DNA of 64,000 bases, from positions 52,080,001-52,144,000 of the forward strand of contig NC_091988.1 of NCBI RefSeq assembly GCF_044704955.1, written 5' to 3'. Of this stretch, positions 1,004 through 60,400 are shown piece by piece. The position numbers and the translations under genes are program-made. The notes below the pieces were generated by a model. The model was given only the letters and a program-made list of their open reading frames with translations. It was not told where the DNA came from and did not search any database. Numbering within the stretch: position 1 is the first letter of the stretch; each line of letters opens with the position of its first letter. The stretch is from Pristiophorus japonicus. Taxonomy: Eukaryota.

Positions 1004-1910
1004 AAAGAACATAAGAACATAAGAATTAAAAGCAGGAGTCGGCCATTCAGCCCCTCAAGCCTCCATTCAATGACATCATGGCTGACCTTTCTCAATCCAC
1101 TTTCACCGCCCAATCCCCATATCCATTGATTCCCCTAGAGTCCAAAAATCTATCTATCTATTTCAGCCTTGAATATATATATATATATATATTTTTTTTT
1201 TTTAATTCGTTGCCAATCTTTCCAATTCTTTGTCAAATCACAAACGCCAGAGGTCACCTTGCACACATCAAGGATCACTCTGCGCCAATGCTCTTAGCCA
1301 AAAGGCCTAGAGCCACTGCACCGTTCCTGGAAGTACTGCAATACCAGGTTCATGCCATGGAGGTGGATGGGTCAGGCCCCCCACACACCTCCGTGGAGGT
1401 GGATGGGTCAAACCACCCCACCCACCTCCTATTTCCAAAAAGCATAGGAGAATCACCTTCCTGATCCAGGGAGAACCACGTTGGGGTCATGGTTACTCCC
1501 CTGTCAGGTCAGTTACGCATGATCTTAGCCAAAAGGCCGAGAAGCGAGCCTTGAATATACTCAATGATTCCACATCCACAGCCCTCTGGGGCAGAGAATT
1601 CCAAAGATTCACAACCCTCTGAGTGAAGCAATTCCTCCTCATTTCAGCCTTAAATGGCCGCCCACTTATCCTGAGACTATGACCCTTAGTTCTAGACTCG
1701 CCAGCCAGGGGAAACAATCTCTCAGCATCTACCTTGTCAATCCCCCTCAGAATCTTACATGTTTCTAGGAGATCACCTTTCAGTCTAAAGTCTAAAGCGT
1801 ATAGGCCAATCAACTCAACTTCTCCTCATAGGACAACCCTCTGATCCCAGGAATCAATCTAATGAACCTTTGTTTTACCACCTCTAACGCAGGTATATCC
1901 TATCTGAGAT
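1004..1910 (-). mobile_element. CR1 LINE 3' fragment, interrupted by the insertion at 1178-1546
   Basis: (AAGAACAT)n tail at 1004-1025. ORF 1493-1813 encodes the CR1 ORF2 C-terminus (SRTKGHSLRI..FTQRVVNLWNSLP). Confidence 0.92.
1178..1546 (-). mobile_element. Chimeric U2/U1 snRNA-derived retroposed element (candidate SINEU-like SINE)
   Basis: Minus strand, in order: TCGCTTCTCGGCCTTTTGGCTAAGATCA (U2 5' end); U1-like ACTGACCTGACAGGGGAGTAACCATGA..GTGGTTCTCCCTGG; Sm-like TTTTTGG; U2 3' end ACCTGGTATTGCAGTACTTCCAGGAACGGTGCA; second GGCCTTTTGGCTAAGA; unique tail; poly(A)+(TA)n. TSD AGCCTTGAATATA at 1165-1177 and 1547-1559. Confidence 0.88.
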
Positions 1911-6370: not shown

Positions 6371-9300
6371 CATAGAAACATACAAACATAGAAAATAGGT
6401 GCAGGAGTAGGCCATTCGGCCCTTCGAGCCTGCACCGCCATTCAATGAGTTCATGGCTGAACATGCAACTTCAGTACCCCATTCCTGCTTTCTCGCCAGA
6501 CCCCTTGATCCCCCTAGTAGTAAGGACTACATCTAACTCCTTTTTGAATATATTTAGTGAATTGGCCTCAACAGCTTTCTGTGGTAGAGAATTCCACAGG
6601 TTCAACACTCTCTGGGAGAAGAAGTTTCTCCTCATCTCGGTCCTAAATGGCTTACCCCTTATCCTTAGACTGTGACCCCTGGTTCTGGACTTCCCCAACA
6701 TTGGGAACATTCTTCCTGCATCTAACCTGTCTAAACCCATCAGAATTTTAAACGTTTCTGTGAGATCCCTTCTCATTCTTCTGAACTCCAGTGAATGCAA
6801 GCCCAGTTGATCCAGTCTTTCTTGATATGTCAGTCCCGCCATCCCGGGAATCAGTCTGGTGAACCTTCGCTGCACTCCCTCAATAGCAAGAATGTCCTTC
6901 CTCATGTTAGGAGACCAAAACGGTACACAATAGTCCAGGTGTGGCCTCACCAAGGCCCTGTACAACTGTAGTAATACCTCCCTGCCCCTATACTCAAATC
7001 CCCTTGCAATGAAGGCCAACATGCCATTTGCTTTCTTAACCGCTTGCAGTACCTGCATGCTAACCTTCAATGACTGATGTACCGTGACACCCAGGTCTCA
7101 TTGCACCTCCCCTTTTCCTAATCTGTCACCATTCAGATAATAGTCTGCCTCTCTGTTTTTACCACCAAAGTGGATAACCTCACATTATACTTCATCTGCC
7201 ATGCATTTGCCCACTCACCTAACCTATCCAAGTCACTCTGCAGCCTCATAGCATCCTCCTCGCAGCTCACACTGCCACTCAACTTAGTGTCATCTGCAAA
7301 TTTGGAGCTACTACATTTAATCCCCTCGTCTAAATAATTAATGTACAATGTAAACAGCTGGAGCCCCAGCACAGAACCTTGCGGTACCCCACTAGTCACT
7401 GCCTGCCATTCTGAAAAGTACCCATTTACTCCTACTCTTTGCTTCCTGTCTGCCAACCAGTTCTCAATCCATGTCAGCACACTACCCCCAATCCCATATG
7501 CTTTAACTTTGCACATTAATCTCTTGTGTGGGACCTTGTCGAAAGCCTTCTGAAAGTCCAAATACACCACATCAACTGGTTCTCCCTTGTCCACTCTACT
7601 GGAAACATCCTCAAAAAATTCCAGAAGATTTGTCAAGCATGATTTCCCTTTCACAAATCCATGCTGACTTGGACCTATCATGTCACCTCTTTCCAAATGC
7701 GCTGCTATGACATCCTTAATAATTGATTCCATCATTTTACACACTACCAATGTCAGGCTGACCGGTCTATAATTCCCTGTTTTCTCTCTCCCTCTTTTTT
7801 TAAAAAGTGGGGTTACATTGGCTACCCTCCACTCCCTAGGAACTGATCCAGAGTCTATGGAATGTTGGAAAATGACTGTCAATGCATCCGCTATTTCCAA
7901 GGCCACCTCCTTAAGTACTCTGGGATGCAGACCATCAGGCCCTGGGGATTTATCGGCCTTCAATCCCATCAATTTCCCCAACACAATTTCCCGACTAATA
8001 AGGATTTCTCTCAGTTCCTCCTTCTTACTAGACCCTCTGACCCCTTTTATATCCGGAAGGTTGTTTGTGTCCTCCTTAGTGAATACCGAACCAAAGTACT
8101 TGTTCAATTGGTCTGCCATTTCTTTGTTCCCTGTTATGACTTCCCTTATTCTGACTGCAGGGGACCTACATTTGTCTTTACTACCCTTTTTCTCTTTACA
8201 TATCTATAGAAGCTTTTGCAGTCCATCTCAATGTTCCCTGCAAGCTTCCTCTCGTACTCTATTTTCCATGCACTAATCAAACTCTTTGTCCTCCTCTGCT
8301 GAGTTCTAAATGTCTCCCAGTCCCCGGGTTCACTGCTATTTCTGGCCAATTTGTTTGCCATTTCCTTGGCTTTAATACTATCCCTGATTTCCCTTGATAG
8401 CCACGGTTGAGCTACCTTCCCTTTTTTATTTTTACGCCAGACAGGGATGTACAATTGTTGTAGTTCATCCATGCAGTCTCTAAATGTCTGCCATTGCCCA
8501 TCTACTGTCAACTCCTTAAGCATCATTTGCCAATCTATCCTAGCCAATTCACGCCTCATACCTTCAAAGTTACCCTTCTTTAAGTTCTGGACCATGGTCT
8601 CTGAATTAACTGTTTCATTCTCCATTCTAATGTAGAATTCCACCATATTATGGTCACTCTTCCCCAACGAAATTGCTAATTAATCCTCTCACATTACACA
8701 ACACCCAGTCTAAGATGGCCTCCCCCCTAGTTGGTTCCTCGACATATTGGTCTAGAAAACCATCCCTTATGCACTCCAGGAAATCCTCCTCCACCATATT
8801 GCTTCCAGTTTGGTTAGCCCAATCTATATGCATATTAAAGTCACCCATGATAACTGCTGCATCTTTATTGCATGCACCCCTAATTTCCTGTTTGATGCCC
8901 TCCCCAACATCACTACTACTGTTTGGAGGTCTGTATACAACTCCCACTAACGTTTTTTGCCCTTGGAAGTTCTGCAGCTCCACCCATATAGATTCCACAT
9001 CATCCAAGCTAATGTCCTTCCTAACTATTGCATTAATCTCCTCTTTAACCAGCAATGCTACCCCACCTTCTTTTCCTTTTATTCTATCCTTCCTGAATGT
9101 TGAATACCCATGGATGTTGAGTTCCCAGCCCTGATCATCCTGGAGCCACGTCTCTATAATCCCAATCACATCATATCTGTTCACATCTATTTGCACAGTT
9201 AATTCATCCACCTTATTAAGGATACTCCTTGCATTAAGACACAAAGCCTTCAGGCTTGTTTTTTTAACACCCTTTGTCCTTTTAGAATTATGATGTAGTA

Positions 9301-33664: not shown

Positions 33665-36600
33665 TTTACAAATTAAGTTAATCTAAGGGTTAAGTCATGG
33701 CAGGAGAGCCCAGACCCATGTCATACTCCTCCTCTGTTATGTGGGAAGTCAGGGACGCTACCAGTGTCCCTGACTACTATGTGTGCAGGAAGTGTGTCCA
33801 GCTGCAGCTCCTGACAGACTGCATTGCGGCACTGGAGCTGTGCATGGACTCACTCTGGAGCATCTGCGATGCTGAGGATGTCGTGAATAGCATGTTTAGT
33901 GAGGTGGTCACATCGCAGGAAAAGATTACTCAGACAGATAGGGAATGGGTGACCATCAGGCAGAGCAGTGGAAGGAAGGTGATGCAGGGGTCCCCTGCGG
34001 TCATCTCCCTCCAAAACAGACACACCGTTTTGGGTATCGTTGGGGGAGATGACTCATCAGGGGAAGGCAGCAGCAGCCAAGTTCATGGCACCATGGGTGG
34101 CTCTGCTGCACAGGAGGGCAAGAAAAAGAGGGGGAGAGCTATAGTGATAGGAGATTCTATTGTAAGGAGAACAAATAGGCGATTCTGCGGCCGCAAACGA
34201 GACTCCAGGATGGTATGTTGCCTCCCTGGTGCAAGGGTCAAGGTGGTCTCAGAGCGGCTGCAGTGCATTCTGAAGGGGGAGGGGGAACAGCCAGCTGTCG
34301 TGATGCATATAGGTACCGACGATATAGGTAAAAAATGGGATGAGGTCCTACAAGCTGAATTTAGGGAACTAGGAGTTAAATTAAAAAGTAGGACCTCAAA
34401 GGTAGTAATCTCAGGATTGCTACCAGTGCCACGTGCTGATCAGAGTAAGAATTGCAGGATAGTTCAGATGAATATGTGGCTTGTGGAATGGTGCGAGGAG
34501 GAGGGATTCAAATTCTTGGGGCACTGAAACCGGTTCTGGGGGAGGTGGGACCAGTACAAACCGGACGGCAGGACCGGACCTATGTCCGAGGTGGAGTGTT
34601 TGCTAGTGCTGTTGGGGAGGGTTTAAACTAATATGGCAGGGGGAGGGAACCTATGCAGGGAGGCAGAGGTAAGTAAAAAGGGGGCAGAAGCAAAAGGTAG
34701 GAAGGAGAAAAGCAAGAGTGGAGGGCAGAGAAATCAAGGGCAAAAATCAAAAAGGGCCACATTACAACATAATTCTAAAAGGACAAAGAGTGTTAAAAAA
34801 AAACAAGCCTGAAGACTCTGCGTCTCAATGCGAGGAGCATTCATAATAAGGTGGGCGAATTAACTGCGCAGATTGCTGTTAACGGGTATGATGTAATTGG
34901 GATTACGGAGACATGGCTCCAGGGTAACCAAGGCTGGAAACTCAACATCCAGGGGTATTCAATATTCAGGAAGGATAGACAGGAAGGAAAAGGAGGTGGG
35001 GTAGCGTTAATGGTTAAAGAGGAGGTTAACGCAATAGTAAGGAAGGACATTAGCTTAGATGATGTGGAATCTATATGGGTAGAGTTGCGAAATACCAAAG
35101 GGCAGAAAACATTAATGGGAGTTGTGTACAGGCCACCAAACAGTAGTGGGGAGGTTGGGGATGGCATCAAACAGGAAATTAGTGACGCGTACAATAAGAG
35201 TACAACAGTTATCATGGATGACTTTAACCTAAATATTGATTGGGCTAACCAAACTGGTAGCAAGACTGTGGAAGAGGATTTCCTGGAGTGTATAAGTAAT
35301 GGTTTTCTAGACCAATATCCTAGACTGGGTGTTGTGTAATGAGAGAGGATTAATTAGCAATCTGGTCGTGCGTGGCCCCTTGGAGAAAAGTGACCATAAT
35401 ATGGTAGAATTCTTCATTAAGATGGAGAGTGACACAGTTAATTCAGAGACTAGGGTCCCTTAAAGAAAGGAAACTTCGATGGTATGAGATGTGAATTGGC
35501 TAGGATAGACTGGCAAATGATACTTAAAGGGTTGACGGTGGATAGGCAATGGCAGACATTTAAAGATCACATGGATGAATTACTATTGTACATCCCTGTC
35601 TGGCGTAAAAATAAAACAGGAAAGGTGGTTCAACTGTGGCTAACAAGGGAAATTAGGGAAAGTGTTAAATCCAAGGAACAGGCATATAAATTGGTCAGAA
35701 AAAGCAGCAAACCTGAGGACTGGGAGAAATTTAGAATTCAGTAGAGCACGAGTAAGGGTTTAATTAGGAGGGGGAAAATAGAGTATGAGAGGAAGCTTGC
35801 AGGGAACATAAAAACTGACTGCAAAAGCTTCTATAGATATGTGAAGAGAAAAAGATTAGTGAAGACTTGCAGTCAGAATCAGGTGAATTCATAATGGGGA
35901 ACAGGGAAATGGCAGACCAATTGAACAAATACTTTGGTTCTGTCTTCACTAAGGAAGACACGAAGAATCTCCCGAAAATACTAGGGGACCGAGAGTCTAG
36001 CGAGAAAGAGGAACTGAGGGAAATCCTTATTAGTCAGGAAATGGTGTTAGGTAGACTGATGGGACTGAAGGCCGATAAATCCCCAAGGCCTGATGGTCTG
36101 CATCCCAGAGTACTTAAGGAAGTGGCTCTAGAAATAGTAGATGCATTGGTGGTCATTTTTCAAAATTCCATGGACTCTGGATCAGTACCTATGGATTGGA
36201 GGGTAGCTAATGTAATCCCACTTTTTAAAAAAGGGAGAGAGAAAACAGGGAATTATAGACCGGTTAGCCTGACATCAATGGTGGGGAAAATGCTGGAATC
36301 AATTATTAAAGAGGTAATAGCAGCGCATTTGTAAAGCAGTGACAGGATCGGTCCTAGTCAGCATGGATTTATGAAAGGAAAATCATGCTTGACAAATCTT
36401 CTAGCATTTTTTGAGGATGTAACCAGTAGAGTAGATAAGGGAGAACCAGTGGATGTGGTGTATTTGGTCTTTCAAAAGGCTTTTGACAAGGTCCAACACA
36501 AGAGATTAGTGTGCAAAATTAAGGCACATGGTATTGGGGGTAATGTATTGACATGGATAGAGAATTGGTTGGCAGACAGGAAGCAAAGAGTGGGAATAAA

Positions 36601-58865: not shown

Positions 58866-60400
58866 CCATCTTCATCATAGGCAGTCCCTTGAAATCGAGG
58901 AAGACTTGTTTCCACTCTTAGCATGAGTTCATAAATGGCTGTCCAGTCCAATACAAGAACCACAGTCTCTATCACAGGTGGGACAGACAGTGGTTGAAGG
59001 AAAGGGTGGGCGGGGAGCCTGGTTTGCCGCACGCTCCTTCTGCTGCCTGCACTTGATTTCTGCATGCTCTCAGCGATGATACTCGAGGAGCTCAGCGCCC
59101 TCCCGGATGCACTTCCTCCACTTAGGGCGGTCTTTGGCCAGGGACTTCCAGGTGTCAGTGGGGATGTCGCACTTTATCAGGGAGGCTTTGAGGGTATCCT
59201 TATAATGTTTCCTCTGCCCACCTTTGGCTCGTTTGCCATGGATGAGTTCCGAGTAGAGCGCTTGCTTAGGGAGTCTCGTGTCTGGCATGCGAACTATATG
59301 GCCTGCCCAGCGGAGCTGATCAAGTGTGGTCAGTGCTTCAATGCTGGGGATGTTGGCGTGGACGAGAACGCTAATGTTGGTGCGTCTGTCCTCCCAGAGG
59401 ATTTGTACGATCTTGCAGAGATATTGTTGGTGGTATTTCTCCAGCGACTTGAAGTGTTTACTGTAGATGGTCCATGTCTTTGAGTCATACAGGAGGGAGG
59501 GTATTACTATAACCCTGTAGACCATGAGCTTGGTGACAGTTTTGAGGGACTGGTCTTCAAACATTCTTTTCCTCAGGCAGCCAAAGGCTGCACTGGCGCA
59601 CTGGAGGCAGTGTTGGACCTCGTCGTCAATGCCTGATCTTGTTGATAGGAGGCTCCCGAGATAAAGGAAGTGGTCCACATTGTCCAGGGCCAGGATGTGG
59701 ATCTTGATGTCTAGGGGGCTGTGCTGTGCGGCGAGGACAGGCTGGTGGAGGACCTTTGTCTTACTGATGTTTAACGTAAGGTCCATGCTTTCATACGCCT
59801 CGGTAAATACGTCGACTATGTCCTGGAGTTCAGCCTCTGTGTGTGCACAGATGCAGGCGTCGTCCGCGTACTGTAGCTCGATGACAGATGTTGGAGTGGT
59901 CTTGGACCTGGCCTGGAGACGGCGAAGGTTGAACAGCTTCCCACTGGTTCTGTAGTTTAGTTCCACTCCAACGTGGAGCTTGTCAACTGTGAGGTGGAGC
60001 ATGGCAGTGAGGAAGATTGAGAAGAGGGTTGGGGCGATGACGCAGCCCTGCTTGACCCCGGTCCGGACGTGGATTGGGTCTGTGATGGATCCGCTGGTAT
60101 GGATCATGGCCTGCATGTCGTCGTGGAGCAGGCGGAGGATGGTGACGTACTTTTGGGAGCATCCGAATCGGAGGAGGACGCTCCAAAAGCCCTTCGGTTG
60201 ACAGTGTCAAAGGCCTTTGTAAGGTTGAAGAAGGCCATGTATAAGGGCTAGCGCTGTTCCCTGCATTTTTACTGCAGCTGTCGCGTAGTAAAAATCATGT
60301 CTGTTGTGCTCTGGAGGGGACGAAATCCGCACTGTGACTCCGGGAGGAGCTCCTTGGCCACGGGGAGAAGACGGTTGAGAAGGACTCTAGCGACGGCTTT
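58866..60400 (-). mobile_element. RTE-clade LINE, 5'-truncated
   Basis: ORF 59070-60116 (GVKQGCVIAPTLF, LQYADD, YLGS, QLRWAGH..RMPDTRLPK) and upstream LPESQCGFRP; short (GAT)n-type 3' tail. Confidence 0.95.

Follow-up and report, generated by a model that had tools for sequence, protein, structure and literature searches.

A young U1/U2-headed SINE family in Pristiophorus japonicus, probably moved by a Keno-like Tx1 LINE and possibly transcribed from copies resident in U2 genes

Introduction

SINEs whose 5' heads derive from U1 or U2 snRNA (SINEU) are defined from crocodilians only in the passages of Kojima 2015 (PMC4494074) drawn on here, which leave their transcription open and propose flanking promoters. 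The same passages link SINEU to Tx1-Mar, which clusters with Keno, and describe tandem copies for SINEU-3 and an absence of LINE 3' similarity for SINEU-1. The excerpted accounts of a 2017 review (PMC5381603) and of PMC5786205 repeat the crocodilian description. The U2 gene is also a LINE target: according to the relevant section of PMC4640811, the U2 sequence downstream of Utopia begins at nt 39, and the 3' flank of Keno is identical. No report of SINEU from a chondrichthyan was found in the literature searched, to which subscription journals, Repbase Reports and Dfam did not belong.

Here we describe a U2/U1 chimeric element found in a 64,000-nt stretch of the P. japonicus genome (the window; NC_091988.1, 52,080,001–52,144,000), together with its family, its target sites and a candidate partner LINE. 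A sequence-only reading of the window had taken the element for a member of a propagating snRNA-headed SINE family.

Results

A U2/U1 chimera splits a CR1 LINE

The window element spans 345 nt of the minus strand (1204–1548) and consists of a U2/U1/U2/U2 chimera with a tail and poly(A). Module boundaries were set by alignment to the host's own U2 and U1 genes, and every module named in the sequence-only reading is present at about the coordinates it gave. The head (1514–1547) aligns to U2 nt 2–35 with 32 of 34 positions identical, and the identity over nt 2–29 holds without mismatch against the host U2 gene. It is followed by U1 nt 3–57 (1460–1513; 45/55 identical, 82%, E 6e-10), where the stem of stem-loop I is kept and its loop changed, and by a repeat of U1 nt 28–47 (1447–1466; 18/20). 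U2 nt 97–147 come next (1392–1444; 38/53), with a degenerate Sm-site region (TTTTTGG at 1441–1435) and a remodelled stem III. The duplicated stem III and the conserved stem-loop IV lie in U2 nt 109–186 (1316–1395; 62/80), and a second U2 5' hairpin corresponds to nt 7–29 (1289–1311; 21/23). An 85-nt tail (1204–1288), a 12-nt poly(A) (1192–1203) and an (AT)n run (1178–1191) complete the minus-strand insertion.

When the element was compared with Rfam, a check proposed with the original reading, the U2 profile matched over 1311–1548 above its gathering threshold (61.6 bits against 46, E 1.5e-11); the U1 profile, which bears on the claim of a diverged U1 head that the host U1 alignment upholds, stayed under its own (22.6 bits against 69.5, E 0.002). 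The element is the sole gathering-level match and the sole family copy within the window. Matches to a prion-pseudoknot and to miRNA profiles fell below gathering, derive from the duplicated stem, and were rejected. The predicted RNA fold beats 100/100 shuffles (z −4.4), as is expected anyway because snRNA-derived hairpins are present.

The target-site duplication (TSD) is 12–13 bp long. A perfect 13-bp direct repeat at 1165–1177 (3' copy) and 1547–1559 (5' copy, whose end overlaps the start of the U2 head) agrees with the earlier description, and a nick at AGT|ATATT would leave a 12-bp core. The insertion does split a CR1 LINE on the minus strand: the C-terminal part of the RT lies 5' of it (1560–1920; tblastn aa 91–220), and the 3' part lies beyond (1010–1164), where the ORF resumes at 1157–1113 and the element ends near AAGAACAT-type repeats, so that the reading frame aligns on both sides (aa 128–220 and aa 217–231). 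The best named matches to a CR1 RT fragment of this genome are from skates, rays, bamboo shark and chimaera (~52–72%), with birds at 39–46%; they point to a cartilaginous-fish host, without singling out sharks. About 20 further CR1 RT fragments are scattered on both strands of the window (5670–63791), which also holds ORFs of at least 220 aa at 7133–8203, 33694–34527, 59070–60206 and elsewhere. No RNA run was listed among the sequencing runs holding the stretch; the share was 0.45–0.97 for organism A (three of these rows may be the source DNA) and small for B (0.13) and C (0.05).

The element is one copy of a multicopy SINE family

We searched the genome (5.92 Gb) by similarity and by exact short patterns, counts of the latter being lower bounds. 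Of 1,255 candidates from the similarity search 40 were scored, and the 39 best other matches are full length and 97–99% identical. Exact patterns gave at least 2,330 U2/U1 junctions and at least 4,827 tails genome-wide, with 0 for the reversed controls. That the element belongs to a propagating SINE family and is not a one-off pseudogene, as first proposed, is practically certain. Rough first-look counts of 224,200 (U2) and 128,409 (U1) candidates may hint at more snRNA-derived repeats.

For the structure of the family (hereafter family A) we went down the first 67 junction matches as listed and took 59 loci, three already known from the similarity search being skipped, and added 30 similarity loci. 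A TSD of at least 7 bp was found for 89/120 copies versus 38/600 shuffled pairs, some calls inside arrays including poly(A), and L087 being left out of the count for want of a 3' end; the median length is 13 bp (63 independent sites) and the range 7–22 bp. L087 itself is a tailless copy which stops in the G-rich stem and has an apparent TSD. Subfamilies are discrete, with a median nearest-neighbour identity of 99% and a median identity to the window copy of 94% (69 sampled copies). Of 81 sampled copies, about 70 have their 5' end within U2 nt 2–14 and share no common extension, and 5' truncation recurs at about nt 110–127, the base of a long G-rich stem. Single loci show other 5' structures: a 220-nt unique extension between TSD and head (L060:1301–1520), an inverted U2 head directly 5' of the element that resembles twin priming (L025:1476–1498), and a poly(A)-ended element 5' of a SINE array with the same TSD start (L013, ~1075–1112). 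At the 3' end, which had been read as poly(A)/(TA)n, the poly(A) holds family-wide while the (TA)n run is locus-specific: among 30 loci it occurs in the window and in L002 only, and also in L094, each time beside a TSD starting with ATAT, and it is likely slippage at that start of the target.

Two or more family-A copies stand in tandem, head to tail, at 14/58 sampled loci. In six of these loci (L024, L056, L078, L082, L111, L114) the TSD of the upstream copy contains the head of the downstream copy, hence the upstream copy was inserted later. The test is blind to 3'-ward growth, so the number of 5'-ward cases is one-sided; growth in the 5' direction would be expected if the recognition motif were 5' of the nick and kept only there.

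The family shares with SINEU a 5' head from U1/U2 snRNA, a multicopy common structure of less than 500 bp, poly(A) and TSDs. Judged by the A-box and B-box consensus, it has no internal Pol III promoter: there are three T-runs, no B box and two loose A-box-like strings. The T-runs and the absent B box argue against Pol III transcription.

A simpler relative, family B, and the tail

A second family (family B) is built of a whole U2, U2 nt 7–38, a 45-nt tail and poly(A); it has 500 exact tails and two subtypes. In its least diverged form it reaches 94% identity to the U2 gene, and the inner U2 piece ends at nt 38. The tail of the window element had been called unique; it is instead an internally duplicated version of the family B tail, to which it aligns and whose core it carries twice. 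Family B would have come first, with the U1 piece and the duplications replacing its middle. Copies of family B occur at L176–L205, L026, L060, L066, L090 and L113, and are themselves targeted at nt 38 by family A.

Several sources of the tail were considered. Nothing but U2 came over threshold in Rfam, and the 3' flanks of the U1 and U2 genes gave E values of 0.2–0.6. An antisense U2 origin was rejected, 315/500 shuffles scoring as high, and so was a LINE origin, as 30/30 family-B tails fetched (of 500) come after U2 sequence and none after LINE sequence. Comparison of the tail with the 3' UTR of the partner LINE described below, likewise suggested by the sequence-only reading, found no significant similarity (17/200 shuffles score as high). 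Some tails carry what is presumably a U6-like 12-mer.

Insertion sites resemble U2 around nt 38

The insertion sites of the family share a motif, with T at −6, G at −5, A at −3 and G at −2, then A. They match U2 nt 32–37 (positions −6 to −1, picked after inspection of the logo) at 2.38 of 6 positions versus 1.56 expected, with 0/20,000 simulations (n=56, after removal of three mis-anchored and four duplicate sites; two or three pairs of sites within one repeat, with nicks offset from each other, were retained). A nick before U2 nt 38 ranks first of the 58 A-run starts that U1 and U2 contain. Family B sites replicate the preference weakly (2.08/6, P 0.058; 13 anchored of 24 examined, six array or duplicate loci dropped). 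One position in a host repeat is a hot target, struck repeatedly by different subfamilies (L028, L080, L089, L096, L185, L239, L243, L246, L247, L253, L254).

U2 sequence itself is also entered. Poly(A) is joined directly to U2 39–60 at 90 junctions genome-wide, many of them in U2 clusters. The upstream element at 30 fetched junction loci is family A in 16 and the partner LINE or family B in the others; of the 16, 14 lie in family-B copies (three being likely one duplicated insertion) and 2 in U2 gene sequence. Here the element inserts at U2 nt 38 and at U2-like sites, with diverse flanks, and the crocodilian SINEU preference for Mariner-N4_AMi is not seen. The sequence-only reading had missed this targeting, along with the tandem arrays formed at one site, family B and the insertions within U2 genes.

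A sister subfamily resides in U2 genes

Eighteen SINE copies lie inside U2 genes, 17 in the C19 U2 array and related contigs and one in the C9 cluster. Each shows the U2 upstream flank, the SINE from U2 +1, poly(A), U2 38–191 and the normal 3' flank. The residents have no TSD and the SINE head alone stands for U2 1–37; the 5' junction would have been made by homology of the head. Identity of the upstream flank to that of intact genes is 98–100% in 11 of the 12 C19-type residents compared and also in the C9 resident. All 18 residents belong to a sister subfamily whose identity to the window copy is 87%, and the window's own subfamily accounts for 0/18.

The resident subfamily has 203 exact tails. 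In 25 dispersed copies of this subfamily the median identity to a resident is 99.4%, and 22 of them start at U2 nt 1–12. Their longest A-run has a median of 20, versus 10 in the general sample, and in 9/9 dispersed copies with tandem neighbours these neighbours lie downstream, i.e. the resident-subfamily copy is the most 5'. Near-identity, long A-runs and the most 5' position together indicate that the resident subfamily is the youngest.

Three alleles were gained stepwise among the C19 residents: the first is seen in L164 and L165, and two others were added later. The dispersed copy L255 has the intermediate state, and L257, which has its own TSD, has the full haplotype with 0 mismatches over 336 nt. 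These alleles are the best evidence on the point, and suggest that array residents give rise to new copies. C19-resident alleles are found in 2/22 full-length dispersed copies and an allele of the C9 resident in 0/22, so most of the subfamily must come from a source not found among the residents. The U2 38–191 piece is carried by 0/25 dispersed copies, so any model of transcription through residents requires priming in the internal A-tract; the U2 upstream flank is carried by 0/57 copies starting at U2 nt 4 or earlier. Among the loci fetched, eight copies form a subfamily whose head reaches U2 nt 38.

The U2 genes are of two types with unrelated flanks (L031–L044 and L115–L119), one a 765-bp tandem array in which the spacers are (GTT)n and a clear PSE is missing, the other a 14–21-kb repeat with a PSE-like box and LINE or family-B remnants downstream. 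Judged by the PSE and octamer consensus, neither motif is recognisable in the C19-type U2 flank, so that the C19 array might be a U2 satellite; the C9-type flank has a PSE-like box, and in U1 genes an octamer lies near −205. The U2 sequence of family B is of the C19 type up to its 3' end, which hints that C19-type U2 genes are transcribed.

A Keno-like Tx1 LINE shares the target

At L014 and L055 a 3.1-kb, 5'-truncated LINE lies downstream of two SINE copies, and in L055 both SINEs sit inside the 17-bp TSD of the LINE. The same LINE family (83–92%) is found at nt 38 in U2 clusters on C9 and C19. An intact C19 copy behind U2 1–38 encodes an ORF1 of 581 aa, with ZCCHC3-type RNA-binding domains and a zinc knuckle, and an ORF2 of 1,147 aa with APE, RT and zf-RVT domains. 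This copy is located at L132:270–6004 (minus strand) in the C19 U2 array, where more copies stand in tandem at ~6.4-kb spacing; its 5' UTR opens with an octamer-like motif. Over the RT region ORF2 shares 48% identity with a zebrafish protein that bears the name TX1 149 kDa; its overall identity to a Takifugu RT is 39%. The label Keno-like rests on domain type and target, because no protein match is labelled Keno: the LINE is a Tx1-type element with APE and RT, is inserted in U2, and has U2 nt 39 onward as its 3' flank.

The LINE has 501 exact 3' ends genome-wide, and its copies are up to 97–98% identical and poly(A)-tailed, with the same TSD range as the SINE. Its target bias is 2.89/6 versus 1.56 (P 0.0003; 30 ends fetched, 20 with the 5' end in view, nine anchored TSDs), and 3 of the 30 ends lie immediately next to a copy of family A or B. 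CR1 was rejected as the mobiliser given poly(A), a long TSD and no CR1 tail, set against the usual behaviour of CR1. The initial preference for L1/Tx1 machinery over CR1 is borne out by the poly(A), the median TSD of 13 bp, and a target and arrays common with U2-targeting Tx1. A Tx1-clade mobiliser is a SINEU trait; here the shared target is observed, and we consider it very likely that the Keno-like LINE moves the SINE, which it would presumably recognise via poly(A), as for L1/Alu.

Discussion

We favour, with moderate confidence, a model in which a young SINE family is moved by a Keno-like Tx1 LINE and transcribed from U2-gene residents via the upstream promoter. Residents occupy U2 genes from +1, the SINE head replaces U2 1–37, and U2 38–191 with the 3' flank follows the poly(A). 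Pol II snRNA-type transcription would start at U2 +1 and run through the SINE; the LINE ORF2p would then prime in the internal A-tract and leave the downstream U2 piece behind. New copies appear at relaxed U2-like sites (TGTAG-like, then A) with 7–22-bp TSDs; re-insertion at the same site produces arrays, and U2 sequence itself is entered at nt 38. Re-entry into U2 genes, with the 5' junction formed by head homology, may renew sources as array turnover deletes old ones, and template switches to U1/U2 RNA may have built the modules. Borrowing of an external U2 promoter, taken by itself, is probable. If true, residence in a U2 gene would give the SINE an external Pol II promoter and a precise +1 start, and would let it spread by concerted evolution.

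The alternative that survives best accepts the Keno-like LINE as mobiliser and treats the copies in U2 genes as sinks, transcription occurring by read-through at a few dispersed masters or from tandem arrays, which has been proposed for the crocodilian SINEU. The lack of a U2 resident of the window's subfamily, the many young dispersed copies that lack resident-specific alleles, the unclear PSE of the C19 array and the 220-nt extension inside the TSD of L060 would all be accommodated by it, as would the 5' extensions of SINEU-2 noted in the passages of Kojima 2015 (PMC4494074). It sits poorly with the clustering of 5' ends at U2 nt 2–14 without a common extension, with the recurrence of stepwise array alleles in dispersed copies, and with the head-to-nt-38 subfamily, which points to rebirth at the U2 site; we judge it unlikely, if a serious competitor.

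Another LINE using the same U2 site, of Tx1/L1 or Utopia type, might be the main mobiliser, the Keno-like LINE merely sharing the site. The SINE and the Keno-like LINE have no 3' end in common, and Utopia, as described in the portion of PMC4640811 concerned with reptiles, has the same site and 20-bp TSDs. The Keno-like LINE, however, is intact, young and poly(A)-tailed, agrees with the SINE in TSD range and in target bias, and is interleaved with it at common nicks, which makes the alternative improbable. Independent chimeric retropseudogenes or segmental duplication of host repeats, which the repeatedly struck host-repeat positions and the duplicate-like loci L145–L147 might recall, are refuted to near certainty by identical six-module junctions in 2,330 places with differing TSDs and flanks and by the discrete subfamilies.

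SINEU was until now a crocodilian oddity, and the present family is a young one in a distant vertebrate lineage; U2-promoter borrowing is a candidate answer to how SINEU are transcribed. With an intact candidate LINE and candidate sources in U2 genes to hand, the pairing of LINE and SINE, the rule of targeting and the promoter are each open to direct test. In addition, SINE and LINE disrupt U2 genes in host arrays, and young insertions offer markers for a slowly evolving group. More broadly, and here the case for and against seems to us evenly poised, snRNA-headed SINEs could be promoter parasites of snRNA arrays: a cDNA with a U2-mimic head would replace the U2 5' end at the Keno nick, the life of a subfamily would be tied to its residence in U2 arrays, SINEU would have originated a second time, independently, in cartilaginous fishes, and SINEs that lack an internal promoter could generally arise by this route.

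Among known systems, Keno (Tx1, APE) and Utopia (RLE) resemble the partner LINE, which has APE, RT and a zinc finger, in entering U2 at nt 38/39 (PMC4640811, PMC4494074, both as excerpted). As for reptile Utopia in the passages of PMC4640811, tandems in U2 arrays are combined with relaxed specificity elsewhere. Keno and Utopia are autonomous, and the passages on them in these two papers name no SINE partner and no chondrichthyan member. Drosophila R2 SIDEs, in the relevant part of PMC3414825, come closest as a precedent: they are non-autonomous, live in a multicopy RNA gene, and depend on a site-specific LINE and on host-gene transcription. They are described there as LINEs with internal deletions that carry a ribozyme and reside in 28S rDNA, whereas the present SINE is snRNA-built, occurs in thousands of dispersed copies and has no LINE sequence besides the common U2 head. 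Chimeric snRNA retropseudogenes (U6-L1 and similar; PMC4494074, in part) have the same template-switch junctions, poly(A) and TSD; they are single events there, while here one structure has been amplified thousands of times.

The closest likeness is to the crocodilian SINEU-1, -2 and -3, as they appear in the passages of PMC4494074. Shared are the U1/U2 modules, recurrent 5' additions, partial duplications, poly(A), a length below 500 bp, tandems that sandwich a TSD, the lack of LINE 3' similarity and of an internal promoter, and a proposed Tx1 partner. The crocodilian target is Mariner-N4_AMi and the present one U2; the module order here is U2-U1-U2-U2-tail, and those passages report no SINEU copies in U2 genes. 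The present family may have arisen independently of crocodilian SINEU. Altogether, the element works like a SINEU in its general features, with U2 in place of the crocodilian target.
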